Source of the DNA: Geotalea daltonii FRC-32
GTDB lineage: Bacteria > Desulfobacterota > Desulfuromonadia > Geobacterales > Geobacteraceae
Length of the DNA stretch: 32,000 nt
NCBI RefSeq assembly: GCF_000022265.1
Contig: NC_011979.1
Span: forward strand, 4,020,001 to 4,052,000
Direction of reading: 5' to 3'
Under the pieces are notes generated by a model. The model did not search any database, had not been told where the DNA came from, and worked only from the letters and a program-made list of their open reading frames with translations. Of this stretch, positions 10,615 through 27,812 are shown in pieces (position 1 is the stretch's first letter; each line of letters starts with the position of its first letter). The translations under genes and the position numbers were made by a program.

Positions 10615-11316
10615 TTATATTACCTGTGAGGATACGTCAGACACATCAAGATTCACACCAGGCCCCATGGTGGAAGAGACACTGATTTTCTTGATATAGG
10701 TTCCTTTTGCTGCAGACGGCTTCGATTTGACCAGCGCATCGATCAGAGCAAGGATGTTTTCCTTCAGCTTGTCTGTTTCGAAAGAGACTTTGCCAACAGG
10801 AGCATGAATGATACCGGCTTTCTCCACCCTGAATTCGACCTTGCCGGATTTGGATTCGTTGACGGCCCGGCCCACATCGAAAGTGACGGTGCCTACCTTA
10901 GGGTTCGGCATCAGGCCACGTGGGCCGAGAAGTTTACCGATCTTACCGACGACACCCATCATGTCGGGTGTGGCAATGGCGGTATCGAACTCGAACCACC
11001 CTTCCTGGATTTTGGCAACCAGATCATCGGCGCCAACGAAATCTGCTCCTGCGTCGCGTGCTTCCTTCTCCTTTTCACCCTTGGCGAAAACAAGAACCCG
11101 GACTTCCTTGCCGAGACCGTTGGGGAGAACAACTGCACCACGGACCATCTGGTCGGCATGCCGCGGGTCAACGCCAAGCCTGACAGCCACGTCTACAGTT
11201 TCGGTGAATTTGGCGTAAGCAGAACTTCTCACCAGTTCAAGGCCGTCATTAAGGGTATAACTTTTGCTCCTGTCAACCTTGGCAAGAGCGTCTTTAAGTT
11301 TTTTACTGGTAGGCAT
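10615..11316 (-). CDS. rplA: 50S ribosomal protein L1
   Basis: 233-aa ORF with L1 motifs ([20 protein letters not shown]...LP.G.GK, ...[21 protein letters not shown]). Confidence 0.96.
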
Positions 11317-11337
11317 TTTCTTTCACCCTCTCTTTAT

Positions 11338-11760
11338 CTATACAATCTCAACGCCCATACTGCGAGCGGTTCCCTCAATGGTTTTCATGGCGGCTTCAAG
11401 ACTGGCGGCATTCAGGTCGGGCATTTTTTTCGAAGCAATTTCCTGCACCTGGGCCTTCGTCAGTTTTCCGACCTTATTCTTGTTGGGAACGCTTGAACCG
11501 CTTTCGATGCCAAGCGCTTTTTTAATAAGAACAGAAGCCGGAGGTGTCTTGGTGACGAACGTAAATGACCTGTCCGCATAAACAGTTATCACTACAGGAG
11601 TAATTGTGCCTTCGTCTGCCTGAGTCTTGGCATTAAAGGCCTTGCAGAATTCCATTATGTTTACGCCGTGCTGACCCAGCGCAGGACCGATCGGCGGGGC
11701 GGGATTTGCTTTACCGGCCGGTACTTGAAGCTTGATATATCCAGTGATTTTTTTAGCCAT
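11338..11760 (-). CDS. rplK: 50S ribosomal protein L11
   Basis: 140-aa ORF reading [44 protein letters not shown]..., the canonical L11. Confidence 0.97.
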
Positions 11761-11825
11761 TACTAGACTCCTTTTATCTGTTCCTTAAATCAATTTATAT
11801 CTTCAGGTCGCAGGTAGAGCCAGAG

Positions 11826-12353
11826 TCATTGTTTTTCGACCTGCATGAATTCCAGCTCCACAGGGGTAGCTCTGCCGAATATACTAACCATGACCCTAAG
11901 CTTGCCTTTTTCAGGTTTCACATCTTCTACAACCCCGGCAAAATTAAGAAAAGGTCCATCAATAACCCTGACGGTCTCACCAACCTCAAAAAGAACCTTG
12001 GGCCGTGGCTTCTCGGCTCCCTCTTCCATACGCTGGGTGATTTTTGCTACTTCTTCATCCGGAATGGCAAAAGGATTATTGCCTCCGACAAAACCGGTAA
12101 CCTTTGAAGTTTCCTTGACGACATGCCAGGTATCGTCATCAAGCTCCATATTAACAAGGATATATCCAGGGAAGAATTTACGGGACGAGGTTCGCTTCTC
12201 ACCCTTCTTCAACTCGACAACTGTTTCACAAGGAATGAGAACTTCACCAAACTTTTCCTCAAGGCCAAGGTTTTTTATTCGCTCCAGGAGCGATAACCTG
12301 ACTTTATTTTCAAAGCCGGAGTAGGTATGTACACCGTACCATTTATGAGCCAT
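11826..12353 (-). CDS. nusG: Transcription termination/antitermination factor NusG
   Basis: 175-aa ORF starting M..KWY.VHTYSGFENKV, with a C-terminal KOW motif (GETVRVIDGPF..F.G.VE.V). It sits between secE and rplK as usual. Confidence 0.95.
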   Translation of the reverse strand: MAHKWYGVHTYSGFENKVRLSLLERIKNLGLEEKFGEVLIPCETVVELKKGEKRTSSRKFFPGYILVNMELDDDTWHVVKETSKVTGFVGGNNPFAIPDEEVAKITQRMEEGAEKPRPKVLFEVGETVRVIDGPFLNFAGVVEDVKPEKGKLRVMVSIFGRATPVELEFMQVEKQ

Positions 12354-12363
12354 TGTGAGTCCT

Positions 12364-12558
12364 CTAGCGGAGTATGAACCTGATCAGCTTGGCCAGGACA
12401 ACATCACAAGCGCCAAGATAAAGGGAGATCAAGACAATAATCACTACAACAACCCATGCTGTAGAAATGGTCTCCTTGCGGGCAGGCCAGGTAACCTTAC
12501 CCAACTCAGCTCTCACTTCCTCCAAAAAATTTTTGGTCTTTACCAGCACTCGTGCCAC
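12364..12558 (-). CDS. secE: Preprotein translocase subunit SecE
   Basis: 64-aa ORF with the conserved F..EV..EL.KV.WP.R.E motif followed by a single TM helix. It is in the canonical position upstream of nusG. Confidence 0.9.
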   Translation of the reverse strand: MARVLVKTKNFLEEVRAELGKVTWPARKETISTAWVVVVIIVLISLYLGACDVVLAKLIRFILR

Positions 12559-12585
12559 CCCACAGTAATTAGGTTTTTAAAAAAA

Positions 12586-12662
12586 TGGCAGGCCAGGAGG
12601 GATTCGAACCCACAACACCCGGTTTTGGAGACCGGTGCTCTAGCCGTTAGAGCTACTGGCCT
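12586..12662 (-). tRNA. tRNA-Trp (anticodon CCA)
   Basis: Reverse complement is AGGCCAGTAGCTCTAACGGCTAGAGCACCGGTCTCCAAAACCGGGTGTTGTGGGTTCGAATCCCTCCTGGCCTGCCA. It folds as a cloverleaf with a perfect 7-bp acceptor stem, anticodon loop CTCCAAA, a TTCGAAT T-loop and an encoded CCA. The T-stem has a U-U mismatch at 50:64. Confidence 0.93.
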
Positions 12663-12701
12663 GCATGAATGAGCCACACAGCGGAGTGGCTCATTTTCGA
12701 A

Positions 12702-12851
12702 TTATTTTGTTTCCTTATGTGACGTGTGCGTACGACAGAAGCGGCAGTACTTCTTCAGTTCCAGCTTTTCCGGTGTTGTCTTCTTGTTTTTTGTCGTTGT
12801 ATAGTTTCTCTGCTTGCACTCGGTGCAGGCAAGTGTGATGATATCTCGCAT
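12702..12851 (-). CDS. rpmG: 50S ribosomal protein L33
   Basis: Not listed in the ORF track because it is under 60 aa. My translation is [49 protein letters not shown]. It has the 4-Cys zinc-ribbon L33 signature and the canonical tuf-rpmG-tRNA-Trp-secE position. Confidence 0.9.
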
Positions 12852-12905
12852 TGCTGCCTTCCTTTGTCTTGATCAGCAAAGGCGGGGTTGGCCCGCCTCT
12901 GTGAA

Positions 12906-14096
12906 TTATTCGATAATAGAGCTGACAACCCCGGCGCCGACAGTGCGGCCGCCCTCACGGATGGCGAAGCGAAGTCCTTCGTCCATGGCGATTGGGGTGA
13001 TCAGGTTCACTTGTACTGCTACGTTGTCGCCGGGCATTACCATCTCGGTGCCGGCGGCAAGTTCTACTATGCCGGTCACGTCGGTGGTGCGGAAGTAGAA
13101 CTGGGGACGATAGCCGTTGAAGAACGGGGTGTGTCGTCCACCTTCTTCTTTGGTCAGAATGTAGGCTTCTGCCTTGAATTTGGTGTGCGGGGTGATTGAA
13201 CCGGGCTTGGCGAGTACCTGGCCACGCTCGATGTCTTCACGCTTGACGCCACGAAGCAGAGCGCCGATGTTGTCGCCGGCACGGCCTTCATCCAAAAGCT
13301 TCCTGAACATTTCTACGCCGGTTACGGTGGTCTTGGAGGTTGCCTTCATTCCGACGATCTCTACTTCTTCGCCGACCTTGACGATGCCTCTTTCTACACG
13401 GCCGGTTGCTACGGTTCCACGGCCGGAGATGGAGAATACGTCTTCGACGGGCATGAGGAACGGACGGTCGATGGCGCGCTGTGGCTCTGGGATGTAGCTG
13501 TCTACGGCTTCCATGAGCTTCATGATGGCGGGCTCGGCCAGTTCGCCCTGCTCGCCGTTCAGTGCCTGAAGGGCGGAGCCTTTGATGATGGGGATGTCGT
13601 CGCCGGGGAAGTCGTAGGAGGAGAGCAGTTCACGAATCTCGAGTTCTACCAGTTCGAGAAGCTCTTCGTCGTCGACCATGTCGGCTTTGTTGAGGAATAC
13701 TACTATGTAAGGTACGCCTACCTGACGGGCGAGCAGAATGTGCTCACGAGTCTGGGGCATTGGACCGTCGGCTGCGGATACGACCAGGATGGCGCCATCC
13801 ATCTGCGCTGCTCCGGTGATCATGTTCTTTACGTAGTCGGCGTGGCCCGGGCAGTCAACATGGGCATAGTGACGCTTGTCGGTTTCATATTCAACATGGG
13901 CGGTGGCGATGGTGATACCACGCTCACGCTCTTCGGGTGCATTGTCGATCTGGTCGAAGGCTTTGAATTCTGCCTGGCCTTTGCCTGCCAGTACTTTGGT
14001 GATGGCGGCGGTCAGGGTGGTCTTGCCGTGGTCAACGTGCCCGATGGTGCCTATGTTTACATGCGGTTTGGTTCTTTCGAATTTTGCTTTTGCCAT
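12906..14096 (-). CDS. tuf: Elongation factor Tu
   Basis: 396-aa ORF reading [33 protein letters not shown]..., with the DCPGHADY and NKAD GTPase motifs. A GGGAGGA RBS lies upstream. Confidence 0.99.
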
Positions 14097-14162
14097 GAAG
14101 GTATCCTCCCTATAAATGAATGCCTAAAAGTTCGTTTTACCGATTTTTTTGAACAGATTAAA

Positions 14163-14238
<76 letters not shown>

Positions 14239-14251
14239 GATCGAAGAAAAT

Positions 14252-14328
14252 TGGAGCGGGAAACGGGACTCGAACCCGCGACCCTCAGCTTGGAAGGCTG
14301 ATGCTCTAGCCAACTGAGCTACTCCCGC
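14252..14328 (-). tRNA. tRNA-Gly (anticodon TCC)
   Basis: Reverse complement is GCGGGAGTAGCTCAGTTGGCTAGAGCATCAGCCTTCCAAGCTGAGGGTCGCGGGTTCGAGTCCCGTTTCCCGCTCCA. It is a cloverleaf with anticodon loop CTTCCAA and an encoded CCA. Confidence 0.93.
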
Positions 14329-14441
14329 CAATTCCTGCAAATCAGAAGATTTTTGAATCGATAAGCAGCACAGCAACCCAGTACATGCGACATAAAGTCT
14401 CCTGAGGCCTGTCGTGATCTCATCTCTTCTGTAGTATTTTA

Positions 14442-14526
14442 TGGTGGAGGGAGGAGGATTCGAACCTCCGAAGTCTACGACGACAGATTTACAGTCTGTT
14501 CCCTTTGGCCGCTCGGGAATCCCTCC
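14442..14526 (-). tRNA. tRNA-Tyr (anticodon GTA), long variable arm
   Basis: Reverse complement is GGAGGGATTCCCGAGCGGCCAAAGGGAACAGACTGTAAATCTGTCGTCGTAGACTTCGGAGGTTCGAATCCTCCTCCCTCCACCA. This is close to E. coli tRNA-Tyr as I recall it, with anticodon loop CTGTAAA. Confidence 0.94.
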
Positions 14527-14549
14527 AGACGAAGAACGTTTCCTGACTG

Positions 14550-14625
14550 TGGAGCTGGCGATGGGACTCGAACCCGCAACCTGCTGATTACAAGTCAGCT
14601 GCTCTACCAATTGAGCTACGCCAGC
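14550..14625 (-). tRNA. tRNA-Thr (anticodon TGT)
   Basis: Reverse complement is GCTGGCGTAGCTCAATTGGTAGAGCAGCTGACTTGTAATCAGCAGGTTGCGGGTTCGAGTCCCATCGCCAGCTCCA. It has a perfect acceptor stem and anticodon loop CTTGTAA. The T-stem has one C-A mismatch and one G-U pair. Confidence 0.9.
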
Positions 14626-14640
14626 AATGTTTCTCTAAAC

Positions 14641-14668
14641 TTAATACAACTTTTTACTGCTTGGTCAA
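14641..14668 (-). promoter_or_regulatory. Candidate proximal promoter (P2) of the tRNA-tuf operon
   Basis: Minus strand reads TTGACC (14663-14668), a 16-nt spacer, then TATTAA (14641-14646). The -10 element ends about 15 nt before the first tRNA nucleotide. Confidence 0.35.
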
Positions 14669-14692
14669 GATGCTTCAAAAAGCGAAGTTCCT

Positions 14693-14721
14693 TGTATAGA
14701 TCAATTCAACTTTACTGTCAA
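14693..14721 (-). promoter_or_regulatory. Candidate distal promoter (P1) of the tRNA-tuf operon with an A/T-rich UP-like tract
   Basis: Minus strand reads TTGACA (14716-14721), a 17-nt spacer, then TATACA (14693-14698). It is preceded by TTTTTTTTCTTAAAAAATTG. Confidence 0.4.
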
Positions 14722-14747
14722 CAATTTTTTAAGAAAAAAAACAATTC

Positions 14748-16562
14748 TTATGTTTCTATCTTTTTTCTTTTCATGTTTTTCTGGCGAAAAGCAAGGTCAT
14801 CTCGTCCACCAAAAAGCTCGCCAGATGCAGATTCACGGTTACACGCCTGCAGTGCCTGGATCACGTTTTTTCTTTCCTCTGCCACATGGGAAAGGAGCAA
14901 AGATTTCTGCAGCCTCTTTTCCTTGTCGCTCTTTGCCACATAGACTGCATTACCGGTAAAAGGATCAATCCCCGTATGATAGATACAGGTCGACAATGTG
15001 CCTGGTGAGGGGGTGAAATCCTGTACCTGCTCGACCTTCAATCCGTTTCTTTTAAGAAAAAGCGCCAGATCAACCATGTCTGACATAGTGCTTCCAGGAT
15101 GGCCCGAGATAAAATAAGGTATTACATATTGTTTTTTGCCGGCACAGGAACTTTCCTCTCTGAAACTGGCAAGGAACTTTTCAAATGCCCCGCTACCCGG
15201 CTTACGCATCAGGTCGGTTACCTTTTTAGAAACATGCTCTGGCGCGACCTTCAACAACCCGCCCACATGATAGCGCAACAGCTCCGTAAAGTAGGACTTT
15301 TGGAAGGCTAAGAGATCATAGCGAATGCCGGAGGAAACCACCGTATGCTTTATTCCTTCAAGTTTCCTGATTTTGGCCAGCAGGGCTGCTGCCCGTTTGT
15401 CCGACATATACAGATTTCTGCAGGGAACGGGATAGAGACAGCTTTCACGTCGGCAGGAAGCCTCAGCTGAGGGATTGCCACACCTCAAACCGTACATGTT
15501 CGCTGTTGGTCCGCCAATGTCGCTGATACTCCCCTTGAACCACCTCAATGAGGAAAGCTTGGTTATTTCCTGAAGAATGGACGCTTCACTGCGGGACTGA
15601 ATCGCCTTGCCCTGGTGATGGGTGATGGCGCAGAAGGCACACCCGCCAAAGCAACCACGGTGGGTAGTAATAGAAGCTCTTATCTGTTCGTAGGCAGGAA
15701 TGGTTTCTTTGTACGAAGGATGGGGCGCTTTCATAAAAGGAAGCGCATAAACCAAGTCCATGACTTCCTCCGAAAGGGGAAGAGCAGGTGGATTACATAT
15801 CAGGTACCGGTTATCATGCTTCTGGCAAAGTTTCTTGCCACAGAACGGATTTTGTTCCAGAGAAATAAGCCGGAAAGCCTCGTTGAATTTTGCCGGTTCA
15901 GCATTTACCCCTGAAAAAGCTGGAATTTCGCTAACAGGACCATCGCCAGGAATAGCATTGGAAATAAAGGCCGTTCCGCGGATATCCGTTAGAGAAGTGA
16001 ACGCCTCGCCGTTACGCAATCTTGTAGCCAACTCCAGCATGGGGGTCTCACCCATACCGTAAATAAGCAAATCTGCCTTGGCATCAAAAATGATGGAGCG
16101 GCGCACCTTGTCTTCCCAGAAATCATAATGGGCAAAGCGGCGAAGAGATGCTTCAATGCCGCCGATGACGATCGGCACATGGCGAAAGGCTTCCCTCAGG
16201 CGAGAACTGTAAACGATAGTGGCACGGTTGGGCCGCGCCCCATGCCTGTTGCCGGGAGTATAGGCATCATCATGGCGAAGCTTCCGTGCCGGAGTGTAAT
16301 GGGCGACCATGGAATCCATGGCTCCTGCCGAGACAGCAAAAAACAGGCGAGGGGCACCAAGCGTCATGAAAGCATCTTTCGAATGCCAATCCGGCTGGGG
16401 AATTATCCCTACTCTGAACCCATGAAATTCAAGCCAGCGGGCAAGGAGAGGTATGCCGAACGAAGGATGGTCGATGTAGGCATCGCCGCTGACAAAGATA
16501 ACATCAAGCTCGTCCCAGCCCCGCTTTTTCATATCTTCCCTTGAGATGGGGAGAAAAGACAT
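14748..16562 (-). CDS. ygiQ: YgiQ-family (UPF0313) radical SAM protein
   Basis: 604-aa ORF. The N-terminus [36 protein letters not shown] is typical of YgiQ. It carries a CFGGCAFC (CxxxCxxC) radical SAM cluster motif. Confidence 0.85.
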
Positions 16563-18738: not shown

Positions 18739-19473
18739 TCAATAAAAGACTTCCATGAGACAGAGTCCTTGCGGCGGTGCGGTGATGCCGGATGCAGACC
18801 GGTCTCCTCCGGCAAGCAACCCGGGAATGGCAGATGGGTCCAGCTTACCCTGCCCCACGGCGACCAAGGTGCCAGCAATGACCCTGACCATGTTTTTCAA
18901 AAATCCTGAGCCATGCACATCTATGATGACAGAGTCGCCTACTTTGGCAACCGAAACATGGAACATTCGGCGGATAGTTGTTTTTGCCACACAGTTTGAC
19001 GCCCGGAACGCTGCAAAATCATGCTCACCGACAAAATGGGAAGCGCCCAGCTGCATCAATTCCATATTCAGTATGCCCCGCAGATGCCAGGAGTTGAGCC
19101 GTGTCAGGGGAGAGCGCCGCTTACTGTTATAAATGGTGTACCGATAATGCTTGCTGATTGCATCGGCACGGGGGTTGAAAGAAAGCGGCACCTCGGAGGC
19201 ATCCCTGATGGCGATATCTGGAGGGAGAAGGCAATTGAGGCCATCGGAAAAGGCACGGACAGGCAGATCCTTTTGCGTTTTAAAAACCGCCACCATCCCC
19301 AGTGCATGAACCCCGGCATCGGTACGACCTGAGGATTGCAGCCGAACCGATTGCCCCAGCATCTTCTCCAGGGACTCTTCAATTACCTGCTGAATAGTTA
19401 TGCCATTGGGCTGCAACTGCCATCCGCAGTAGGCGGTACCGTCATATTCTATGATAAGCTTTATATTACGCAT
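18739..19473 (-). CDS. truA: tRNA pseudouridine(38-40) synthase TruA
   Basis: 244-aa ORF reading MRNIKLIIEYDGTAYCGWQLQPNG.TIQ..IE..L, with the catalytic-Asp region GRTDAGVHA. Confidence 0.94.
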   Translation of the reverse strand: MRNIKLIIEYDGTAYCGWQLQPNGITIQQVIEESLEKMLGQSVRLQSSGRTDAGVHALGMVAVFKTQKDLPVRAFSDGLNCLLPPDIAIRDASEVPLSFNPRADAISKHYRYTIYNSKRRSPLTRLNSWHLRGILNMELMQLGASHFVGEHDFAAFRASNCVAKTTIRRMFHVSVAKVGDSVIIDVHGSGFLKNMVRVIAGTLVAVGQGKLDPSAIPGLLAGGDRSASGITAPPQGLCLMEVFY

Positions 19474-19484
19474 GAACGAAGGGC

Positions 19485-19513
19485 ACTATAGCAGAAATTC
19501 GAATGGAAACCAA
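19485..19513 (-). promoter_or_regulatory. Candidate promoter just upstream of truA (would give a near-leaderless mRNA)
   Basis: Minus strand reads TTGGTT (19508-19513), a 17-nt spacer, then TATAGT (19485-19490). The -10 ends only 11 nt before the truA ATG, and no Shine-Dalgarno is visible there. Confidence 0.3.
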
Positions 19514-19562
19514 CAGGGGATGGTGTATATCATTTTTTTGCACATGCCAGACCCGCTAAAAT

Positions 19563-20990
19563 TTATATTGGCAAACTTAAACTGGCACGCAAGCCTTTAT
19601 CCGGCAGATTGTCAAGCTGGATGCCACCCCCGTGAAGAATGGCGACTTCTCTCACGAAGTTGAGGCCCAGGCCAGTGCTCTTCTTGCCGGTGTCGGGGCG
19701 TTGCAGGGAAAAGAACCTATTGAATATCTTATCCCTGCAATACTCGGGAATTCCGGGGCCCTCATCATCGACCACAATAACAAGAGCTCCTTCAGCAACA
19801 GTTGCGGTTATCGCAATGGTTCCCCCTGAGGGGCTGAAATCAATGGCGTTCTGAACTATATTGGAAACAGCCTGGTGAAGTAGAAACAGATCCCCTGGTA
19901 CGCTGGCACCCTCATCCACATGAAATGCAATTTGCAGCCCCTTGCGTGACAGGATAGGACCCTTGCTTTCCAGCACAGCGGTGAGAAGCCCATTAAGACA
20001 AACGGGCTCCACATTTTGCAGGGTCTTTCTTGCCTCAAGTTCGGACAGCTTAAGCATGCGGTCCACCAGGTCCTGGATCCGGTTGGCCTCGGTACGGATG
20101 TTGGAAAGGAACAGCTGCCGCTTCTCCGTCGGCATCTGCTCATCCAGAAGTTCCGCCGCTCCTTTGATGGCAGAAAGAGGACTCTTTATTTCATGGGTAA
20201 GGGTCTGGACGTACCGTTCCACATATTTTTTCCCTTCCAGGGCCTCACGCATATCTTCCAGAGCCAGGCCCATATCCCGCAATTCCGTGCGCCCCAACGG
20301 GGGAAGCCTCGGCCTTTTCCCATCGCGGATCTTATTGGCATACCTGGTGAGTCTTTTGATGGGATGGGTCAGCCACAAAGATACGACAAAAGAAAGGGCA
20401 ATAGCCGACGCCGCTGCAAGGTACCAGAGCTTGAGGATTCTGGGTCTTTCGCTGTTGACAAAGGCATTGATGTTGGTGGTCGGTTTGGCCACCGTCACTA
20501 CTCCTGCATTTTTCCCATGAATGATGATAGGTGCTGCAACAAACAGTATGGACGTCCTGGGGTCCTTAGGATCCAGGCGAGTAGTCCTTGTGCCGTATTC
20601 CCCTTTCAGTGTCAGGGAAACGTCCCGCCACCTGGAGTAATCCGCGCCGACGTTCTTGGGTTCCAGTGAATCGAAGATCACTTTTCCCGAAGGGTCGGTG
20701 ATGTATATGCGAAGGTCCACACGCTTCTTCTGGAATCCATAAATGCGCGCTGTAAGGGAGCGGGAATAGGCGTGATCAAAAGCCTTGTACAGATCCTGCG
20801 GATTAAAGCGTCCGGTCTCCATCTGCGTTCCCACCATGGCCGCCAGCAGCGTGGCGTGGTCCGCAAGGGGATCTTCCACGCTTTCCAGAAAAAATGTCCT
20901 CAGGTCCTTGAAGAATTGGCTGGCCGGGTATGAAAAGCAGATGACTGAGATAAGGAGGTAGGCGAGAAAAATCCGTGCTGCCAGCTTCAT
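19563..20990 (-). CDS. Sensor histidine kinase, CreC-like
   Basis: 475-aa ORF with two TM helices bracketing a sensor domain of about 170 aa. It has an H-box (THEIKSPLSAIKGAAELL) and HATPase N/G boxes (NAIDFSP..., DEGPGIP, GLGLNFV). The sensor segment ADYSRWRDVSLTLKGEYGTRTT and the region around the H-box closely resemble E. coli CreC as I recall it. The start overlaps the response-regulator stop by 4 nt (ATGA). Confidence 0.85.
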   Translation of the reverse strand: MKLAARIFLAYLLISVICFSYPASQFFKDLRTFFLESVEDPLADHATLLAAMVGTQMETGRFNPQDLYKAFDHAYSRSLTARIYGFQKKRVDLRIYITDPSGKVIFDSLEPKNVGADYSRWRDVSLTLKGEYGTRTTRLDPKDPRTSILFVAAPIIIHGKNAGVVTVAKPTTNINAFVNSERPRILKLWYLAAASAIALSFVVSLWLTHPIKRLTRYANKIRDGKRPRLPPLGRTELRDMGLALEDMREALEGKKYVERYVQTLTHEIKSPLSAIKGAAELLDEQMPTEKRQLFLSNIRTEANRIQDLVDRMLKLSELEARKTLQNVEPVCLNGLLTAVLESKGPILSRKGLQIAFHVDEGASVPGDLFLLHQAVSNIVQNAIDFSPSGGTIAITATVAEGALVIVVDDEGPGIPEYCRDKIFNRFFSLQRPDTGKKSTGLGLNFVREVAILHGGGIQLDNLPDKGLRASLSLPI

Positions 20991-21667
20991 AGGTCTTCCC
21001 TCAGGGCATACCCTGTTCCCCGATAGGTTACAATAGGGTCTTTGCCTGGCTCAATTGTTCTCAGTTTCGCTCTGATGTTTTTTATATGGGCGTCAATGGT
21101 CCGGTCAAGACTGCAGTCAGGATGCTCCCAGACGATCTGCATAAGCTGATCCCGGGAAAAAACATGACCGGGCCGTCGGATGAAGGTCTTGAGGATGTCG
21201 AACTCATAGCGGGAGAGATCCAAGACCCTGCCAAGATAGGAAATCTGGCGTTTCGACTCATTCACTGCGAATGTCCCGGTACATGGAGAAGGCTTGTTGC
21301 CTGTGCCGGTCCTTCTCAACACAGCCTTGACCCTGGCCGACACCTCCCTGGGGCTGAAAGGTTTGGTAATGTAATCGTCGGCGCCGATCTCCAGGCCAAC
21401 AATCCGGTCGATCTCATCGGCGCGGGCGGTAAGAAAAATGATTGGGACGGAACGAAGTTGCCGTATCTGTTTGCACAGTTCGAATCCGCTCATGTCCGGC
21501 AGGCCGACATCGAGAATGATGAGATCGACAGCATGATCCGCCAGCGAAGAAACAACCTGTGTCCCTGATGGAAAACAGAGCGTCTCGAATCCCTCTGTTT
21601 CAAGGGCATATTGAATAGCGTCGACAATTCCAGGTTCGTCCTCGACGATCATTATTCGCGGCTTCAT
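20987..21667 (-). CDS. OmpR/PhoB-family response regulator, CreB-like
   Basis: 226-aa ORF. The receiver domain reads IMIVEDEPGI...LIILDVGLPDMSGFELC, and the winged-helix output reads LSRYEFDILKTF...DRTIDAHIKNIRAKLR...YRGTGYAL. Several blocks match E. coli CreB as I recall it. Confidence 0.88.
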   Translation of the reverse strand: MKPRIMIVEDEPGIVDAIQYALETEGFETLCFPSGTQVVSSLADHAVDLIILDVGLPDMSGFELCKQIRQLRSVPIIFLTARADEIDRIVGLEIGADDYITKPFSPREVSARVKAVLRRTGTGNKPSPCTGTFAVNESKRQISYLGRVLDLSRYEFDILKTFIRRPGHVFSRDQLMQIVWEHPDCSLDRTIDAHIKNIRAKLRTIEPGKDPIVTYRGTGYALREDL

Positions 21668-21712
21668 GATGGTTTGCCCCCTCCAGATCTGCGAAAAACT
21701 TCAATCTGATCC

Positions 21713-23083
21713 TCAGCTTGCTCTTTTCTCTTTTGTTTCCCTGATTATGTCAATCTTTTTCTTCAGCAGGTTGAGGACAAGCCAGCCCAGAAAAATACAG
21801 AGGGTTGCAACCAGCACGAAAACCGAGTGTTCCAGATACCGCGGCCCATATCGGTGGAGGGAGCCGTTCAGCAGGGGCATGAAGACGGAGATTGCAAGGT
21901 ACCAGGCGAAGGGAGCAAATACGACATTGGAAACGGACTGAATTTCTGAGGCTATCGCGGTCTCGGCAGCGGAAGATTTTTTACGGCAAAGGCGGCCGAC
22001 CATCCGTTCCGCCGCCAGATAGGTGATTACCAGGATCGGCACATATATCAGCATCCCCGCCAGCCTGTGGACCCGTTCCGGTGTGGCCCATTCGCCATAG
22101 ATGTCTGCCCGGTACAAATAGATGGAGATCATAATCCTGAAACTGTTGCCCAAGAGTGTCACCAGATAGGCCGAAATAATGCTGATGACAAGCCAGGCCC
22201 ATTTCTTCATTGGGTTGTCCAATCGGGAAACGAGGGTAAAGAAGATGGTGGCAAAACAGATAATGAAAAAATTAACTCCCGCACAGGCCGGGGCAATGAC
22301 GACGCGGCTGGCAAGGCTGACAAAACCGACGGCAGGATCGTACTGGAACTGGATGCCGGTGATGAGCTCCACCAAAAAGGCAAGGGGTTGCAGAACCCAG
22401 ACCAGATCGTCTACTCCTGCTGTGCTGTAAAAGCCCTTGAGGGACAAAATCACTATCATGCCCAACCCATACAAAGGGAGGTTCTTCCTCGTTACCCCTT
22501 TGTCCGTCCGCCGCCGTCTGTTTCTTTGCCAGTTCCGCCAACACGACAGTACCCGCTTCACTGGCCCCTTGCCGAAACAGTTGACCATAAAGGAGAGAAA
22601 AACGATCCGGCTGTCGAGGAAGAGGCTGTAGGAGCCTGCATACCTGTCGTCAAAAAATCTGCTGACGCTTCGCCCTTTGCCGGCAAAGAGTTGCGCCAGC
22701 CCCGTCATGCCGGGTTTGCACCGCCAGCGGCCCAAGGCGGGATCCTGCCAGTCAAGGCGCGTCACATCCTCCATAGTCATCGGACGAGGCCCGACCATGG
22801 ACATGGAGCCCCCGAGGACATTGAAAAACTGCAACAGTTCGTCAAGCCCTGTTGCCCGGATCCATCCCCCGACCCTCGTCACCCGTCCTTCCCGCATGCT
22901 TCGAAACTTGTAGATGCGAAACATGCGCATTTCTTTTCCAAGCCTCTCCTGCACAAAAAGAACCGGTCCTCCATCTTCGAGAAGAATCAGCAGGGTAACA
23001 ACGAAAAAGACAGGGAGAAAGACAACCAGGCCAATGGATGCAGCGACCATGTCAAAGATGCGTTTTATGGGATTCTGTTTCAT
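21713..23083 (-). CDS. Fusion protein: small PglC-like polyprenyl-phosphate sugar phosphotransferase (aa ~1-175) plus an exosortase/archaeosortase-family polytopic domain (aa ~200-445)
   Basis: The N-terminal half carries Bac_transf hallmarks. These are a re-entrant helix with Pro (LVVFLPVFFVVTLLILL), GGPVLF.QER.G, FRIYKFRSM, the GLDELLQFFNVL Asp-Glu dyad, MVGPRP and KPGMTGLAQ. A highly basic linker (WRNWQRNRRRRTDKGVTRK) follows, then about 7 TM helices. These carry the three exosortase signature residues in order and context: APAC267AG (22283-22285), GNSFR316I (22136-22138) and RVH339RLAG (22067-22069). Called by motif, with no HMM run. The start overlaps the upstream radical SAM stop (ATGA). 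Confidence 0.75.
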   Translation of the reverse strand: MKQNPIKRIFDMVAASIGLVVFLPVFFVVTLLILLEDGGPVLFVQERLGKEMRMFRIYKFRSMREGRVTRVGGWIRATGLDELLQFFNVLGGSMSMVGPRPMTMEDVTRLDWQDPALGRWRCKPGMTGLAQLFAGKGRSVSRFFDDRYAGSYSLFLDSRIVFLSFMVNCFGKGPVKRVLSCWRNWQRNRRRRTDKGVTRKNLPLYGLGMIVILSLKGFYSTAGVDDLVWVLQPLAFLVELITGIQFQYDPAVGFVSLASRVVIAPACAGVNFFIICFATIFFTLVSRLDNPMKKWAWLVISIISAYLVTLLGNSFRIMISIYLYRADIYGEWATPERVHRLAGMLIYVPILVITYLAAERMVGRLCRKKSSAAETAIASEIQSVSNVVFAPFAWYLAISVFMPLLNGSLHRYGPRYLEHSVFVLVATLCIFLGWLVLNLLKKKIDIIRETKEKRAS

Positions 23084-24501
23084 GACGCCGGCGTAACCTC
23101 CGTTTCTTTTAGACCAGGCCGGATCCCGACCTCCTGCTCCTCCCGCTGCGCAGTCAGCAGAACCGACTCCAGAACTCCCCTCATTGAAATCAAGCCTTTA
23201 AACTTGATCATTGCATTCCAAAGGGGTTCAAAGCGCTTCCACCCTCCCGCGTACATAAGATGCCGCACACGGTTCGGAAACAGCGAATGGGCGCTGCTTG
23301 CCTTAAGGATGGAGCCCCACCGGTAAAACTCCCGGTAAGCAAGGTCATACCCTGCTTTCAATTGGTCTGCCGTCATTCCCTTGGGCTGGTAAACCACATG
23401 ACGGGTATCATACAAGTCCCAGTCACTGCTCTGGATGCGCCCATCACCATCGAGGGTCCGAAACAGCGCCGTACCGGGATATGGTGTCAGAATATGAAAT
23501 GTTGCCGTGGTGATACCCCGCTCAATGGCCCAGGATGCGGTACGCCTGAATATATCCGGGCCGTCGCTGTCCAGGCCGAAGACGAAGCTGCCGTTGATGA
23601 AAACACCCAGGTCATCCAGGCGGCGGATCACTCGATCGTAGTCCCGTCCCAGGTTCTGTCGTTTGTTGCTCGCCTGGAGATTCCGGGGATCGATGGATTC
23701 GAAACCAATAAAAATACTTCGAAGTCCTGCCTCCACGGCTCTTTCGATCAGGTCGCCTTCAAGGATGGAATCGACCGTCGCCGCCCCCTGAAAGAGTCTA
23801 TTCATGCCGCGCATGCCATCGAACAGATTTGCGGCGAAGTGCCGGTCCCCCAGCAGATGATCGTCCAGAAAATAGAGATGACGTCCCGGGAGGCTCTCAA
23901 TTTCAGCGAGCGCTGCATCGACGCGTTGGGTATAGAAAGAGGCGCCACCCTGAAAAAAACTATCCTTATAGCAGAAATTGCAGTGATGGGGACAGCCGCG
24001 GGAGACGACCAGGGAGTTAGGCACCAGATATAGTTCCCACTTGATCAGATCGCGGCGTGGGGGTGGCACACCCATGAGGGAACGGTTCGGAGAAAAATAA
24101 ACAAGTCTTGGTTCTCTCCGCCGGAAATCTGCAAGGAAAGCGGGAAACGTATCTTCACCAGGCCCGAGAAAAATGGCGTCGGCATGAAGTTTTGCCTCTT
24201 CAGGCAAAGAAGTTACATGCAGACCTCCCATAGCCACGAAAACGCCCTTTGACCGGTAATGATCGGCAATCATGTATGAGCGGCGGGCGCTTGTAACATA
24301 GGCTTGAATCACCACCAAATCGGGATGATCGCTGGTATCAAGTTCTTCCACATGTTCATCGACAAGCTCAACTTCATCGTCCGGCGACAGAAAAGCGGCA
24401 AGGGTTGCAAGTCCAAGGGGTGGAAACAATGAATACTTTATGGGACGCCAGAATGGACTTTTTGCCTCTATCAAGGCGGGCAAAATCATTTTCACTTTCA
24501 T
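23080..24501 (-). CDS. B12-binding-domain radical SAM protein (class B rSAM, DUF4070-like C-terminus)
   Basis: 473-aa ORF. The N-terminal cobalamin-binding-like domain reads ILPAL...FPPLGLATLAAFL...DLVVIQAYVTSA...VAMGGLHVT. The CxxxCxxC motif is SRGC170PHHC174NFC177YKD (23971-23994). An AAGGAGA RBS lies 5 nt upstream of the ATG. Confidence 0.88.
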   Translation of the reverse strand: MKVKMILPALIEAKSPFWRPIKYSLFPPLGLATLAAFLSPDDEVELVDEHVEELDTSDHPDLVVIQAYVTSARRSYMIADHYRSKGVFVAMGGLHVTSLPEEAKLHADAIFLGPGEDTFPAFLADFRRREPRLVYFSPNRSLMGVPPPRRDLIKWELYLVPNSLVVSRGCPHHCNFCYKDSFFQGGASFYTQRVDAALAEIESLPGRHLYFLDDHLLGDRHFAANLFDGMRGMNRLFQGAATVDSILEGDLIERAVEAGLRSIFIGFESIDPRNLQASNKRQNLGRDYDRVIRRLDDLGVFINGSFVFGLDSDGPDIFRRTASWAIERGITTATFHILTPYPGTALFRTLDGDGRIQSSDWDLYDTRHVVYQPKGMTADQLKAGYDLAYREFYRWGSILKASSAHSLFPNRVRHLMYAGGWKRFEPLWNAMIKFKGLISMRGVLESVLLTAQREEQEVGIRPGLKETEVTPAS

Positions 24502-24590
24502 ACGGTCTCCTTGGTATTGATCCGATAACTGCCGGTTCTGCTCTGGGCAAGGAGGGAACCTTCAAGGCTCCCTCACGCTCTTAATCGGCT

Positions 24591-26588
24591 TTACTTGATC
24601 ACCTTTCCCTGTCGCCGGTATCGTTCAAGCCCGAGGAGCGCGGCAGCCACGACAATGAACAGCACCGTGAGGCCGGGTTCCGGCACGGAGGTGCATCCCA
24701 CGGCCAGATTGGAAACACCTGCGGGAAGTGGCAATGGCTGGTCCACATTATCCGCTGCGCCTTCTTTGTTTCGAACCTCTTCAAGAACGGCAATGAATGA
24801 TGTATACGGAGTGAGCAGGTTGTAGTCGAGCCCGAGATTCGTTACCTCTCTCCTGGTGTCAGAATTTTCCCCCTGGACATTGTAATTCGACAGTCTTGCG
24901 ATACGAGAACGGGCCCAGAGGTATTTCAGGGGGGCATGGTCTGAAAGGGGTTTGGTTTCTTTGACGTAAAAAGTTCGGGTATATTTGCCTGCTGCGGTTT
25001 TACCGGTAAGCTCAATTTCGCCGATCGGTTTGCCGCGCCACTTGCCGTACAAAACCAGGGGGCGCTGGGCAAAGAGATCGGGAATGGTCGCCGGTTCCAC
25101 ATTGTAGGCCTCAAATTCTTTGAATTTGACATGAACGCCGGTCAACAGGGGGGACGCCACATACTTGCGGAAGCGATCCGAGGCTTCCTTCGCCTCTTCC
25201 GGCTTCGTTACCACGAAGGACTCCCCTTGGCCCGCCTGGGCAATACCGTCCACCAGGTAGCGATTGATGCTCGACCCGATACCGAAGGAGAAGACATTGG
25301 TGGTATCCAGATTTTCGGAAATCAGCTTGAAACTCTCCCGTTCCGCACTGATAAAGCCGTCGGTGATGATAACCGCCGTACGGGCTTTACCCTTTTCCCG
25401 CGGCAGGGACAGGGCTTTATTCAGGGCGGCAGCTAGCTCAGTTCCGCCTCCTCCCTGCTGGGAATCGATGAGTCTGATCGCTTTCGTGATATTTTCACTG
25501 GTTGCAGGAATGGACGAAGGATCCATGACCTGTGAGCCGCCGGCAAAAAGGACCAGGTTGAACGTGTCAGTGGGACGGAGGTTGCCGATCAGGTCCCGGA
25601 TCAGAGTCTTCGCCGTATCGAGGGGAAAGCCGTGCATGGAACCGGAAACATCCAGGACAAAGATGTATTCCCGAGGCAGGATCTCAGCCGCCTGCACCTT
25701 TTCCGGAGGCTGGACCATAAGAAGAAAGAAGTTCTCCTTCTCCCCTTGATAAAGCATGAGCCCGCTCTGAATCTCCTTGCCGGCAAGGCGGTATTTGAGG
25801 ATGAAGTCCCGATTGGCCGCAAACCCTCCCGATTTCACAAGAGCCGCAGTGACCATAGATTTGTCCAACCATGACAGATCCACCTTGTGGGAAGGACTGA
25901 CCACTTCCTGGATCGGTATCGAGGTGGAGAGAAAGACATTGATGTTAAAAGCAGTAGCCGGAGTTTTCCCCTCCTTGAGATAGGGTGATTTTACCCATTT
26001 GTCGCGCTCTGGAGCGTCCGCCTCTTTCTGATTGGAATACCTGGGTCCGACAACGGTAGGGTAGACGAATTCATAGGTTCCATCCGTCGGCACCAGGAGC
26101 TCGGCATAGTGTAGCTCGATCTGCACCTCATCCCGGGGCATGATGTTTGCGAGGCTCATGGAGAAAACATTCGGCCGTTGCTCCTCCAGGAGCGAGGCGC
26201 TCTTTCCTTCGGCCTTGGCCTTGACGAATTCGGCTTTGGCGGCCTCTTTCTCCTTGATTCGGGCTGTAACGACACGTTTGCCAACCGTCATCTTCATGCC
26301 ATGAACGGAAGCCCTAGTTGAGGCGGGGAAACAGTATCGGGCGTTAATGGGCCGAGTGCCGTTGTTGACATACTTCTGCGTAACGGTGACATCGGCGATG
26401 ACGCCGTTGATGGTGACCTTGACGTCGGTATTCTTCAACGGAAGCCGGTCAACGGCAGGGTCACCATGCTCGATGAAGAAGTAGGGGGAAAGGGTTTTAT
26501 CGCCCCCGTTTTCACTGGAGGCATGGGCAGGCATCTGCGGGATAAGTGAACTGATTAAACAAACTAGGGCAAGCAACTTCGTCTTCAT
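24591..26588 (-). CDS. Secreted VIT-domain plus von Willebrand factor A protein with a C-terminal PEP-CTERM sorting signal
   Basis: I chose the start MKTKLLALVCLISSLIPQMPAHASS (ATG 26586-26588) because it gives a clear signal peptide and AAGGAGG lies 6 nt upstream. The track's 55-aa N-terminal extension is low-complexity and crosses the promoter region. The VIT-like block is LPLKNTDVKVTINGVIADVTVTQKYVN...YCFP....SVHGMKM.VG.R...A.IKEKEAAK. The VWA domain has a MIDAS motif (IFVLDVSGSM). The C-terminus is SVPEPGLTVLFIVVAAALLGLERYRRQGKVIK. Confidence 0.88.
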   Translation of the reverse strand: MKTKLLALVCLISSLIPQMPAHASSENGGDKTLSPYFFIEHGDPAVDRLPLKNTDVKVTINGVIADVTVTQKYVNNGTRPINARYCFPASTRASVHGMKMTVGKRVVTARIKEKEAAKAEFVKAKAEGKSASLLEEQRPNVFSMSLANIMPRDEVQIELHYAELLVPTDGTYEFVYPTVVGPRYSNQKEADAPERDKWVKSPYLKEGKTPATAFNINVFLSTSIPIQEVVSPSHKVDLSWLDKSMVTAALVKSGGFAANRDFILKYRLAGKEIQSGLMLYQGEKENFFLLMVQPPEKVQAAEILPREYIFVLDVSGSMHGFPLDTAKTLIRDLIGNLRPTDTFNLVLFAGGSQVMDPSSIPATSENITKAIRLIDSQQGGGGTELAAALNKALSLPREKGKARTAVIITDGFISAERESFKLISENLDTTNVFSFGIGSSINRYLVDGIAQAGQGESFVVTKPEEAKEASDRFRKYVASPLLTGVHVKFKEFEAYNVEPATIPDLFAQRPLVLYGKWRGKPIGEIELTGKTAAGKYTRTFYVKETKPLSDHAPLKYLWARSRIARLSNYNVQGENSDTRREVTNLGLDYNLLTPYTSFIAVLEEVRNKEGAADNVDQPLPLPAGVSNLAVGCTSVPEPGLTVLFIVVAAALLGLERYRRQGKVIK
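24594..24686 (-). other. PEP-CTERM sorting signal (VPEP, hydrophobic helix, Arg-rich tail) at the C-terminus of the VIT/VWA protein
   Basis: The encoded sequence is VPEP-GLTVLFIVVAAALLGL-ERYRRQGKVIK-stop. This is the tripartite architecture of the PEP-CTERM domain recognised by exosortases. Confidence 0.8.
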
Positions 26589-26652
26589 GGTAAACCTCCT
26601 TGTATTGCAGGTTGCCGTAACTTCCGGCTCATTGTTGAGTCGAATGTACACG

Positions 26653-26696
26653 ATGAAATTGAAGTGAATTTGAAGTGGGGATGAAAAAAGTGTGAA
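26653..26696 (-). promoter_or_regulatory. Phased TTCA(C/T/A) direct-repeat array (cre-tag-like) upstream of the VIT/VWA gene
   Basis: Minus strand reads TTCAC-ACTTTT-TTCAT-CCCCAC-TTCAA-A-TTCAC-TTCAA-T-TTCAT. Four pentamers start exactly 11 bp apart, and two more form a second 11-bp register offset by 6 bp. The first pair matches TTCACnnnnnnTTCAC at 9 of 10 positions. The array ends 64 nt upstream of the ATG. Confidence 0.45.
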
Positions 26697-26710
26697 AAAA
26701 GGGGAGGACA

Positions 26711-26742
26711 AATAAAAAGGCCGTGGAAAAAATTCCACGGCC
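26711..26742 (-). terminator. Rho-independent terminator after the short-type asd
   Basis: Minus strand reads GGCCGTGGAA-TTTT-TTCCACGGCC, a 10-bp perfect stem, followed by TTTTTATTT. It starts about 25 nt after the asd stop. Confidence 0.85.
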
Positions 26743-26767
26743 TTGTCAGACATTAATGTTGCTTGAA

Positions 26768-27787
26768 CTATTTAAGGTACTTCTCGATGAGAATCTCCGC
26801 AATCTGCACCGCATTGGTGGCCGCCCCTTTGCGGATATTGTCCGCTACCACCCACAGGTTCAGGCCATTTTCGATAGATTCATCCTTGCGAATCCGCCCG
26901 ACCTGGACAAAATCCTGCCCGGCTGCATCAACAGGCATGGGATATATACCTTCTGCAACGTCATCAACCAGCTCACAGCCCGGTGCCGCAGCGATCAGCT
27001 CCATGGCCGTCGCAACAGAAATCTCCTTCGCTGTCTCAATATTGATCGATTCGGAGTGGCCGAAGAAAACGGGAATCCGCACCGCAGTCGCAGTAACCTT
27101 GATGTCGGCTTCCATTATCTTGCGCGTTTCATTGACCATCTTCATCTCTTCCTTGGTGTAACCGTTATCGCAGAAGGAATCGATCTGGGGCAGACAGTTG
27201 AAGGCAATCTGATGGGGGTAAACTTCGGTGTTGGCAGGACGGCCATTGAGAAGCTCTCCCACTTGGACACGCAGTTCTTCAATGGCTTTCTTGCCGGTAC
27301 CGGAAACGGCCTGATAGGTGGAAACGACGATGCGCTTGATCTGGGCATGGTCATGGAGGGGTTTGAGAGCTACCACCATCTGGATGGTGGAACAGTTGGG
27401 ATTGGCGATAATCCCTTTCTTCTTGTACCCGGCAATGGCGTGGGCATTCACCTCCGGCACCACCAGAGGCACATCCGCGTCCATGCGCCAGGCGCTTGAA
27501 TTATCGATGCAGATTGCCCCGGCTTTGGCAGCAGAGGGGCAAAACTCTTTGGAACGCTCCCCTCCTGCGGAAAAGAGCGCGATATCAATGCCGTCGAAAG
27601 AATCATGGGTCAATTCCTCCACCAGGACCGCCTTGCCCTTAAATTCCAGTATTTCTCCCGCACTGCGGCTGCTGGCCAGATATTTTATCTTCCCTACCGG
27701 GAAATCACGCTCCTCAAGACACTCGATCATCTGGGCGCCAACCGCGCCGGTGGCGCCGACAATGGCTATATTCCATTTTTTACTCAT
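26768..27787 (-). CDS. asd: Aspartate-semialdehyde dehydrogenase, short (Gram-positive / Vibrio Asd2-like) class
   Basis: 339 aa from ATG 27785-27787 (MSKKWNIAIVGATGAVG...). The track's start at 27793 is a TTG only 3 nt from the GGGGAG RBS. The active-site Cys context (IIANPNCSTIQ) and the His context (PVFFGHSESI) are both retained. Confidence 0.9.
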   Translation of the reverse strand: MSKKWNIAIVGATGAVGAQMIECLEERDFPVGKIKYLASSRSAGEILEFKGKAVLVEELTHDSFDGIDIALFSAGGERSKEFCPSAAKAGAICIDNSSAWRMDADVPLVVPEVNAHAIAGYKKKGIIANPNCSTIQMVVALKPLHDHAQIKRIVVSTYQAVSGTGKKAIEELRVQVGELLNGRPANTEVYPHQIAFNCLPQIDSFCDNGYTKEEMKMVNETRKIMEADIKVTATAVRIPVFFGHSESINIETAKEISVATAMELIAAAPGCELVDDVAEGIYPMPVDAAGQDFVQVGRIRKDESIENGLNLWVVADNIRKGAATNAVQIAEILIEKYLK

Positions 27788-27812
27788 TACCAATATCTCC
27801 CCTTAAATACGT

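Follow-up and report, generated by a model that had tools for sequence, protein, structure and literature searches.

An exosortase K cassette with CreBC-type regulators and a transferase fusion inserted between the asd-like gene and truA of Geotalea daltonii

What is the role of a cassette of five minus-strand genes, one of them a fusion of a phosphoglycosyl transferase and an exosortase, that lies between an asd-like gene and truA in Geotalea daltonii FRC-32? The stretch analysed here, called the window, comprises 32,000 nucleotides (nt) of contig NC_011979.1 (positions 4,020,001 to 4,052,000), and a preliminary description of it had proposed a self-contained exosortase system for the sorting and modification of one protein, equipped with its own two-component system. 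The list of open reading frames (ORFs) places all five co-oriented genes, as described, at positions 19563-26753 between the asd-like gene (26768-27793) and truA (18739-19473). In the order of transcription they encode a VIT-vWA protein that represents the putative cargo (24591-26753 as the longest ORF), a B12-binding radical SAM enzyme (rSAM, 23080-24501), the transferase::exosortase fusion (21713-23083), a CreB-like response regulator (20987-21667) and a CreC-like sensor kinase (19563-20990); the domains that had been named for all five were recovered by Pfam and NCBIfam profile searches. According to the comparisons presented below, the cassette is probably a dedicated exosortase K (XrtK) system under CreBC control that serves the display or release of a single VIT-vWA protein. 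It would additionally contain rSAM and transferase as an accessory module linked to Cre, and would have undergone a later, lineage-specific gene fusion.

The identity of the sorting enzyme can be deduced from the C-terminal half of the fusion (21713-22513, minus strand), which matches the exosortase models as predicted. TIGR04287 scores 133.3 bits (cut-off 55) over residues 200-361 of the fusion and positions 1-158 of the 163 in the model, the TIGR04178 signature reaches 40.9 bits (cut-off 23), and Exosortase_EpsH of Pfam covers residues 259-359. The residues Cys267, Arg316 and His339 are invariant in an alignment of 16 homologues (A1). These comparisons assign the exosortase half to an already named family, exosortase K (TIGR04287), and JGI and NCBI use this designation for its close homologues as well. 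Among the models of other exosortase subtypes only XrtD showed a marginal hit (19 bits, cut-off 400), and the XrtA model is absent from the match list. An exhaustive profile search retrieved 1,793 representative clusters of the XrtK family, the best 150 of which are nearly all stand-alone proteins of 220-340 amino acids (aa), and it is noted that no related solved structure was found, even by profile search. Conservation among the XrtK proteins continues beyond the 163 positions of TIGR04287 into a C-terminal region of ~100 aa with two helices (window positions 21716-22000, fusion residues ~360-456), in which P202, Y206, P214, E229 and H230 (A1 numbering) are invariant.

The gene neighborhood of XrtK was compared across genomes. 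When 185,579 species-level genomes were scanned with the XrtK alignment, 173 relatives were confirmed; 80 loci were retrieved, and three additional loci from protein look-ups resulted in a main set of 83. They originate mostly from metagenome-assembled genomes of Desulfobacterota, supplemented by Binatia, Acidobacteriota, Moduliflexus and Chitinispirillaceae, and their neighbors were scored by tblastn with the proteins of the window over all loci with room for the respective gene. XrtK itself is 31-48% identical to its equivalent in the window. In 70 of 71 other loci the gene immediately upstream of XrtK is an orthologue of the cargo (46-72% identity), and CreB-like (58-77%) and CreC-like (51-71%) genes follow directly downstream in 57 of 67. 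Over all related loci compared, identities amount to 48-77% for the cargo and 58-79% for CreB. According to these sequence comparisons the conserved unit consists of four genes, namely the VIT-vWA cargo, XrtK, CreB and CreC, and is found in no fewer than 80 species-level genomes. Homologues of the rSAM or of the transferase were found within 10 kb of XrtK in none of the 83 loci. The supposition that cargo, rSAM and fusion co-occur as a conserved unit is thus not supported, as this combination is missing from the main set and co-localization is restricted to a small clade (loci L088, L089, L092 and L093). One locus of the main set, L008, exhibits a 5-kb insert between XrtK and CreB (10780-15600) with AAA-ATPase-, amidohydrolase-, Toprim-, exonuclease- and small rSAM-like ORFs, which may represent a mobile or defence island.

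The cargo gene most likely starts with the ATG at position 26588 and not at 26753, because the ribosome-binding site AGGAGG (26595-26600, read from the sequence) is located 7 nt upstream and the resulting protein begins with a signal peptide (MKTKLL...AHA); the ORF start at 26753 falls within the terminator of the asd-like gene. The gene (24591-26588, minus strand) then encodes a protein of 665 aa with a signal peptide (residues 1-23), a VIT domain (122 bits), a vWA domain (VWA_3, 59 bits) and a sorting signal at the C-terminus; the MIDAS motif of the vWA domain (D313-x-S-x-S) is intact. The best family match of the cargo is TIGR03788, the marine proteobacterial sortase target, with 426 bits and hence below the cut-off of 552, and its relatives in the PDB are PARP4 and ITIH. 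The predicted PEP-CTERM-type sorting signal (24594-24686, minus strand) comprises V635-P-E-P, a hydrophobic helix (636-654) and the terminal RYRRQGK, and accordingly exhibits the characteristic layout of P-E-P, transmembrane helix and basic cluster at the extreme C-terminus. The VPEP motif is present in 68 of 82 orthologous cargo tails, and the cargo has the sole PEP-like tail among the proteins of the 32-kb window.

The regulators encoded at the end of the cassette had been described as CreB- and CreC-like, and both of them exceed the respective equivalog cut-offs. The OmpR-family response regulator (20987-21667, minus strand) scores 317 bits with NF008296 (cut-off 273), possesses the phospho-acceptor D53 and is 53% identical to CreB of E. 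coli K-12 over its full length. The sensor kinase (19563-20990, minus strand) reaches 597 bits with NF008312 (cut-off 356), contains HAMP, HisKA (H266) and HATPase domains, and harbors two transmembrane helices around a periplasmic domain of ~165 aa; its identity of 41% to CreC of E. coli K-12 extends from end to end and includes the periplasmic sensor domain. Sequence similarity thus identifies the two proteins as CreBC orthologues, whereas an ORF for creA or creD was found neither in the cassette nor in its flanks (window ORF list, Pfam).

The orthology of the regulators is mirrored by a predicted operator. Four direct half-sites with an 11-bp phase (TTCAC-N6-TTCAT-N6-TTCAA-N6-TTCAA; 26659-26696, minus strand) precede the cargo gene and represent the only cluster of this type in the 32-kb window. 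They resemble the cre/blr tag of E. coli, Aeromonas and Pseudomonas, which is TTCACN6TTCAC (PMC4689548). Of 70 related loci, 58 carry the same array in front of the cargo gene, and the most common number of half-sites per array is four. Searching 2.39 Mb with the pattern TTCA[CT]N6TTCA[CTA], which also recovers the creD tag of E. coli, resulted in 178 matches, 142 of which lie inside the 361-nt windows from 330 nt upstream to 30 nt downstream of the predicted cargo starts; this corresponds to 5.6 matches per kb in comparison to 0.015 elsewhere and to a ~370-fold enrichment. The same four TTCAY half-sites with an 11-bp phase are found at the head of an rSAM-transferase-creBC operon in Geomonas. 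As this operon lacks cargo and XrtK, the array follows the regulators and not the cargo. A -10-like hexamer with moderate support, TACATT (26643-26648, minus strand), is positioned 10 nt past the fourth half-site, and TACAGT or TACGGT is present at the same offset in the nearest relatives (L002, L008, L092, L093). The layout resembles that of a PhoB box, in which the operator replaces the -35 element. Since creB and creC close the operon that begins with the array, autoregulation is to be expected.

Transcription of all five genes as one unit is compatible with their spacing. Two 4-nt ATGA overlaps connect rSAM with the fusion (23083-23080) and creB with creC (20990-20987), the remaining gaps measure 89 nt between cargo and rSAM (24502-24590) and 45 nt between fusion and creB (21668-21712), and a consensus terminator scan detected no minus-strand terminator in the intergenic gaps of the cassette; all of these details agree with the preliminary description. 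The terminator scan did reveal a strong intrinsic terminator of the asd-like gene (26717-26744, minus strand), a 12-bp stem followed by TTTATTTG, which marks the upstream edge of the cassette. The 89-nt gap contains a G+C-rich hairpin of 10 bp (24552-24574, minus strand) that was ruled out as a classical terminator, as it has no U-run and its stability is not significant in comparison to shuffled sequences (z = -1.5). The hairpin may possibly serve as an element of mRNA stability or processing, for which the indications are weak.

How do the two additional enzymes fit into this picture? The rSAM (23080-24501, minus strand) is a protein of 473 aa outside of the core system, with a B12-binding domain (PF02310, 40.3 bits) and a Radical_SAM domain (PF04055, 40.6 bits) that both exceed their cut-offs, and with the cluster motif CX3CX2C at residue 170 (C170-PHH-C-NF-C). 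Its nearest solved structure is AprD4 (6fd2, E = 2e-11), but none of the named B12-rSAM subfamilies searched (HpnJ, HpnR, BchE, AprD4, PhpK and others) reached its cut-off, the best one being HpnJ with 71 versus 578 bits. The protein has neither a signal peptide nor a transmembrane segment and is predicted to be cytoplasmic. It belongs to a very large and conserved family (8,000 of 8,000 scored candidates with E < 1e-20), and orthologues with 63-70% identity are distributed across Bacteroidota, Verrucomicrobiota and Proteobacteria without the cargo. The N-terminal half of the fusion (22514-23083, minus strand) belongs to the small monotopic phosphoglycosyl transferases and is of the PglC type. 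PF02397 scores 148 bits over residues 7-167, and the nearest small relatives among the PDB matches are PglC structures (8e37, 8g1n), next to WbaP. The monotopic hallmarks are retained, namely, a hydrophobic segment (17-35), the D81-E82 dyad and G98-P-R-P, and the small transferase also occurs as a stand-alone protein, with 197 aa in L088 and 213 aa in L090.

The distribution of both enzymes is informative. Locus L088 has the order cargo-rSAM (87% identity)-transferase-XrtK-CreB-CreC, and L089, L092 and L093 share the arrangement cargo-rSAM-XrtK-CreB-CreC without a transferase. In the neighbor-joining tree of the cargo, the rSAM-positive cassettes and the window are located in one clade that also comprises the rSAM-free L002/L003 and L008, a branching pattern that fits a single gain of the rSAM gene and subsequent losses. 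Conversely, the operon rSAM-Bac_transf (213 aa)-CreB-CreC of Geomonas sp. Red32 (L090, 9891-14236) and its equivalent in L091 contain neither cargo nor XrtK at the locus. Another example is a series of Bacteroidota-like metagenome loci (L094-L149, e.g., L125, L142, L133, L132, L116, L121) with a co-directional block that ends with the rSAM gene: genes for a 222-aa transmembrane protein and an HTH_34 regulator come first, the next one encodes either CreD, DUF4153, DUF1361 or a small Bac_transf protein, and the rSAM gene follows. The CreD protein beside the rSAM scores 493 bits with PF06123, and these loci link the uncharacterised rSAM family to CreD. Our literature search for rSAM enzymes together with CreD yielded nothing relevant. 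From these gene contexts the rSAM and the transferase appear to constitute an accessory module that is also tied to the Cre system.

An alternative explanation for the cassette is an integrated sorting-and-modification machine, in which the transferase builds a polyprenyl-phosphate-linked sugar, the B12-rSAM modifies this sugar or the cargo, and XrtK transfers the cleaved cargo onto the product. The position of the rSAM gene speaks in its favor, because it is found between cargo and XrtK in 5 of 5 independent contigs (the window, L088, L089, L092, L093), as does the physical fusion of the transferase to XrtK with both catalytic centres intact. The nearest characterised relatives of the rSAM (HpnJ, AprD4) act on sugars or lipid-linked sugars, and the positively charged residues in front of the first XrtK helix make the fusion appear topologically feasible. 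Moreover, a single protein of 709 aa (P0034; L004, 311-2440) in an unrelated context of MaoC dehydratases and CoaE combines Bac_transf with a B12-rSAM; the existence of such fusions elsewhere indicates that transferase and rSAM do act together. Nevertheless, the core system does without both enzymes in all 83 loci including those with close cargo relatives (L002, 72%; L008, 71%), rSAM occurs without the transferase in three of the cassettes mentioned above, and the Geomonas locus combines rSAM, transferase and CreBC without a cargo or an exosortase. The conservation of rSAM orthologues across phyla that lack the cargo is indicative of a universal rather than a cargo-specific substrate. The cargo is exported via Sec, while the rSAM lacks any signal for export or membrane insertion. 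Furthermore, the active site of the transferase is expected, by established topology, at the cytoplasmic face and the exosortase cysteine at the outer face of the membrane, and a direct hand-off would consequently need a flippase. A tail motif that separates rSAM-positive from rSAM-negative cassettes was sought among the cargos but not found, and the fusion is documented only once. We therefore regard the integrated machine as unlikely. Linkage of rSAM and transferase to Cre without cargo or XrtK, the wide distribution of the rSAM without the cargo and its cytoplasmic nature favor a shared envelope substrate and Cre co-regulation over a cargo-specific modification, and a cargo-modifying role of the two enzymes is less likely than co-regulation. 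The proposal of a self-contained sorting and modification system accordingly stands with respect to one cargo, one enzyme and an OmpR-family two-component system of its own, but conservation of the modification part finds no support.

The transferase::XrtK fusion itself requires a separate explanation. It is exclusively present in G. daltonii among 333 scored homologues and the best 150 of the 1,793 representative clusters; two long representatives of the XrtK family, P0463 and P0492, were rejected as transferase fusions, as they contain no recognisable extra Pfam domain. In L088, which contains the same set of genes, transferase (197 aa) and XrtK (278 aa) are encoded separately, and an alignment with this locus shows that ~95 nt are missing at the junction in G. 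daltonii, comprising the stop codon of the transferase, a 37-nt spacer and ~15 XrtK codons, while the reading frame is kept. These sequences are consistent with an in-frame deletion of ~95 nt, and the fusion looks lineage-specific and secondary. An Arg/Lys run precedes the first XrtK helix, which would fit a cytoplasmic location of the transferase domain. The uniqueness of the fusion and the missing N-terminal codons, stop codon and spacer could also reflect damage, i.e., a deletion that inactivated one or both halves in a cassette that is decaying in G. daltonii, or in a variant of this scenario an assembly or sequencing artefact. However, the frame is open for 456 aa, both domains are complete with respect to their models (Bac_transf positions 1-176 of 179, TIGR04287 positions 1-158 of 163), and the DE dyad, the GPRP motif and the Cys/Arg/His residues are all intact. 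The lost XrtK residues belong to a non-conserved N-terminal tail, and the five genes of the cassette are all intact, with translational coupling. An artefact is unlikely because three contigs, which stem from more than one source including Logan, encode the identical 456-aa protein. Taken together, damage is a very improbable explanation of the fusion.

The location of the cassette is clearly the result of an insertion. The order leuB-asd-asd-like-truA-rplM-rpsI-argC is conserved in Geotalea toluenoxydans, Geotalea sp. SG265 and Geomonas propionica, where asd-like and truA are direct neighbors at a distance of 18-145 nt, and asd, truA or leuB flanks were present at none of the other XrtK loci examined. 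For both reasons the cassette is a 7.3-kb insertion that separates asd-like from truA in the lineage of G. daltonii, in agreement with the variable insertion point in conserved synteny that had been postulated. The site is surrounded by a core housekeeping region with rpoBC, genes for ribosomal proteins, tuf and five tRNAs. Direct repeats, tRNA genes and an integrase were looked for at the borders of the cassette and none was seen; its G+C content does not differ from that of the flanks. The nearest tRNA cluster is located ~5 kb away, at 12.6-14.6 kb of the window, and its five genes (12586-14625; Trp, Thr, Gly, Tyr, Thr) within the tuf/secE/nusG/rpl/rpoBC block represent ordinary core context. 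The insertion and the terminator of the asd-like gene separate truA from its ancestral upstream genes. The downstream edge of the insertion is the gap between kinase and truA (19474-19562, minus strand), for which the terminator scan was negative and the sole promoter candidate is weak (TTGGTT at 19513-19508, 17 nt, TATAGT at 19490-19485). For these reasons, read-through into truA from a Cre-controlled operon may occur. In Geotalea sp. SG265 a CstA gene (L173, 6937-8781) is inserted between asd and asd-like, which therefore represents a second variable junction in the leuB-asd-asd-like-truA block.

A comparison with known systems allows the cassette to be classified. The fused enzyme retains the Cys/Arg/His triad of the XrtK family and has stand-alone homologues in the same gene context, but differs from all other members seen in its phosphoglycosyl transferase domain; the cognate sorting-signal protein is encoded nearby, as expected for XrtK, with the difference that the rSAM gene lies in between. 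The plan of one enzyme, one VIT-vWA target and one OmpR-family two-component system is shared with the proteobacterial dedicated sortase system (TIGR03784 sortase, TIGR03788 target, TIGR03787 regulator, TIGR03785 kinase), which however employs a sortase and LPXTG instead of an exosortase, a VPEP-helix signal and CreBC. The equivalog scores of target (426 versus 552 bits), regulator (150 versus 336) and kinase (114 versus 612) document that the cassette is an architectural analogue and not a member of this system. Swapping of GlyGly-CTERM, PEP-CTERM and LPXTG signals within the VIT/vWA family has been published (PMC3237569). With the CreBC/BlrAB systems of E. coli, Aeromonas, Pseudomonas and Stenotrophomonas the cassette shares proteins that pass the equivalogs and an operator of the type TTCAY-N6-TTCAY. 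The differences concern the target, i.e., VIT-vWA/XrtK with or without rSAM and transferase in the place of creD, the array of usually four instead of two half-sites, and the host, an anaerobic member of the Desulfuromonadales. The exopolysaccharide (EPS) loci with XrtA/EpsH have the exosortase superfamily, the signal of PEP, helix and basic residues, and a transferase of the Bac_transf family in common with the window, but PrsK/PrsR, EpsI and chain-length genes are absent from the cassette, which contains one adjacent cargo, and the transferase reaches only 122 bits with the EPS-locus model TIGR03013 (cut-off 393). The cassette is thus not a system of the XrtA/EpsH EPS type. The eukaryotic ITI heavy chains and PARP4 belong by sequence to the same VIT-vWA fold family as the cargo but share no processing enzyme with it. 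In ITI heavy chains a C-terminal propeptide is removed and the newly formed C-terminus is esterified to a glycosaminoglycan, which makes their processing a suggestive parallel to C-terminal sorting.

Our favored scenario of a CreBC-controlled, dedicated XrtK system with an accessory module can be outlined as follows. The CreC-like kinase would sense an envelope or periplasmic signal with the sensor domain that it has in common with E. coli CreC and phosphorylate the CreB-like regulator. CreB would then bind to the four TTCAY half-sites just upstream of the -10 element and activate, rather than repress, one operon that extends from the cargo gene through creBC, thereby establishing positive autoregulation. 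The VIT-vWA cargo would be exported by Sec and anchored in the inner membrane via its C-terminal helix, and XrtK (Cys267/Arg316/His339) is predicted to cut it at VPEP and either to pass it to an acceptor or to release it to the surface. The rSAM and the PglC-like transferase may have as their substrate a widespread constituent of the envelope, perhaps a polyprenyl-phosphate-linked sugar. Their module presumably joined the cassette in one clade, before the deletion at the junction fused the transferase to XrtK in G. daltonii.

Several observations weigh against this scenario. The match to a PEP-CTERM profile that had been anticipated for the cargo did not emerge despite the VPEP-helix-basic layout, as the isolated tail scores 14.5 bits with TIGR02595 and thus remains slightly below the cut-off of 16, a borderline value that suggests a divergent subtype, and PF07589 was not matched in the Pfam search. 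The dedicated nature of the system relies on a cargo count that covers 32 kb of the genome. The adjacent two-component system is missing from 10 of the 67 loci with room for it, the operator array is absent from 12 of 70 loci, and a strict TAnnnT at the +10 position is present in just 14 of 59. The hairpin between cargo and rSAM could uncouple the expression of the downstream genes, and both the constant position of the rSAM gene and the transferase fusion are compatible with a direct mechanistic link to sorting. Finally, we found no literature on XrtK, its cargo, its regulators or its operator, and the functional steps of the scenario rest on sequence comparison.

Which aspects of the cassette are new? 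The claim of novelty has to be restricted, as the exosortase half belongs to a named family and the four-gene unit is widespread. The core system appears to be known so far in the form of database models, and the same literature search retrieved no report that links exosortases with CreBC and nothing relevant on MSEP-CTERM/XrtN. Control by CreBC and a cre tag, the assignment of the cargo and the rSAM/transferase/fusion variant found in G. daltonii all appear to be undescribed. Comparative genomics led to the recognition of the exosortase family in 2006. The first claimed empirical exosortase phenotype in the literature searched dates from 2024. With one cargo, one enzyme, CreBC as a predictable route of induction and a defined operator, a dedicated XrtK system should be much easier to study than EPS loci with their many cargos.

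Two further-reaching interpretations deserve attention. The fusion and the rSAM gene, which is wedged between cargo and XrtK throughout a clade, could serve as a "Rosetta stone" for the exosortase acceptor, if XrtK moved the VIT-vWA protein after cleavage onto a sugar that is linked to polyprenyl phosphate and modified by the rSAM, or onto a glycan downstream of it. We consider this improbable, but if it were true G. daltonii would offer a minimal and inducible setting for identifying the acceptor through mass spectrometry of a single protein. Less dramatic, but more likely than this, would be that CreBC, CreD, the rSAM family and XrtK/VIT-vWA constitute one cross-phylum guild of the envelope response. 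The physiological effectors of CreBC are poorly understood, and such a guild would provide concrete effector functions for this system.

The features specific to G. daltonii, i.e., rSAM, transferase and fusion, represent a lead that is based on a handful of loci. The conserved unit makes it possible to assign to XrtK its cargo, its regulator and a promoter element, and it ties CreBC to surface-protein sorting and to a highly conserved family of B12-rSAM enzymes. With its functional steps deduced from comparative data, the system would be a tractable handle on both the fate of exosortase substrates and the targets of CreBC control.

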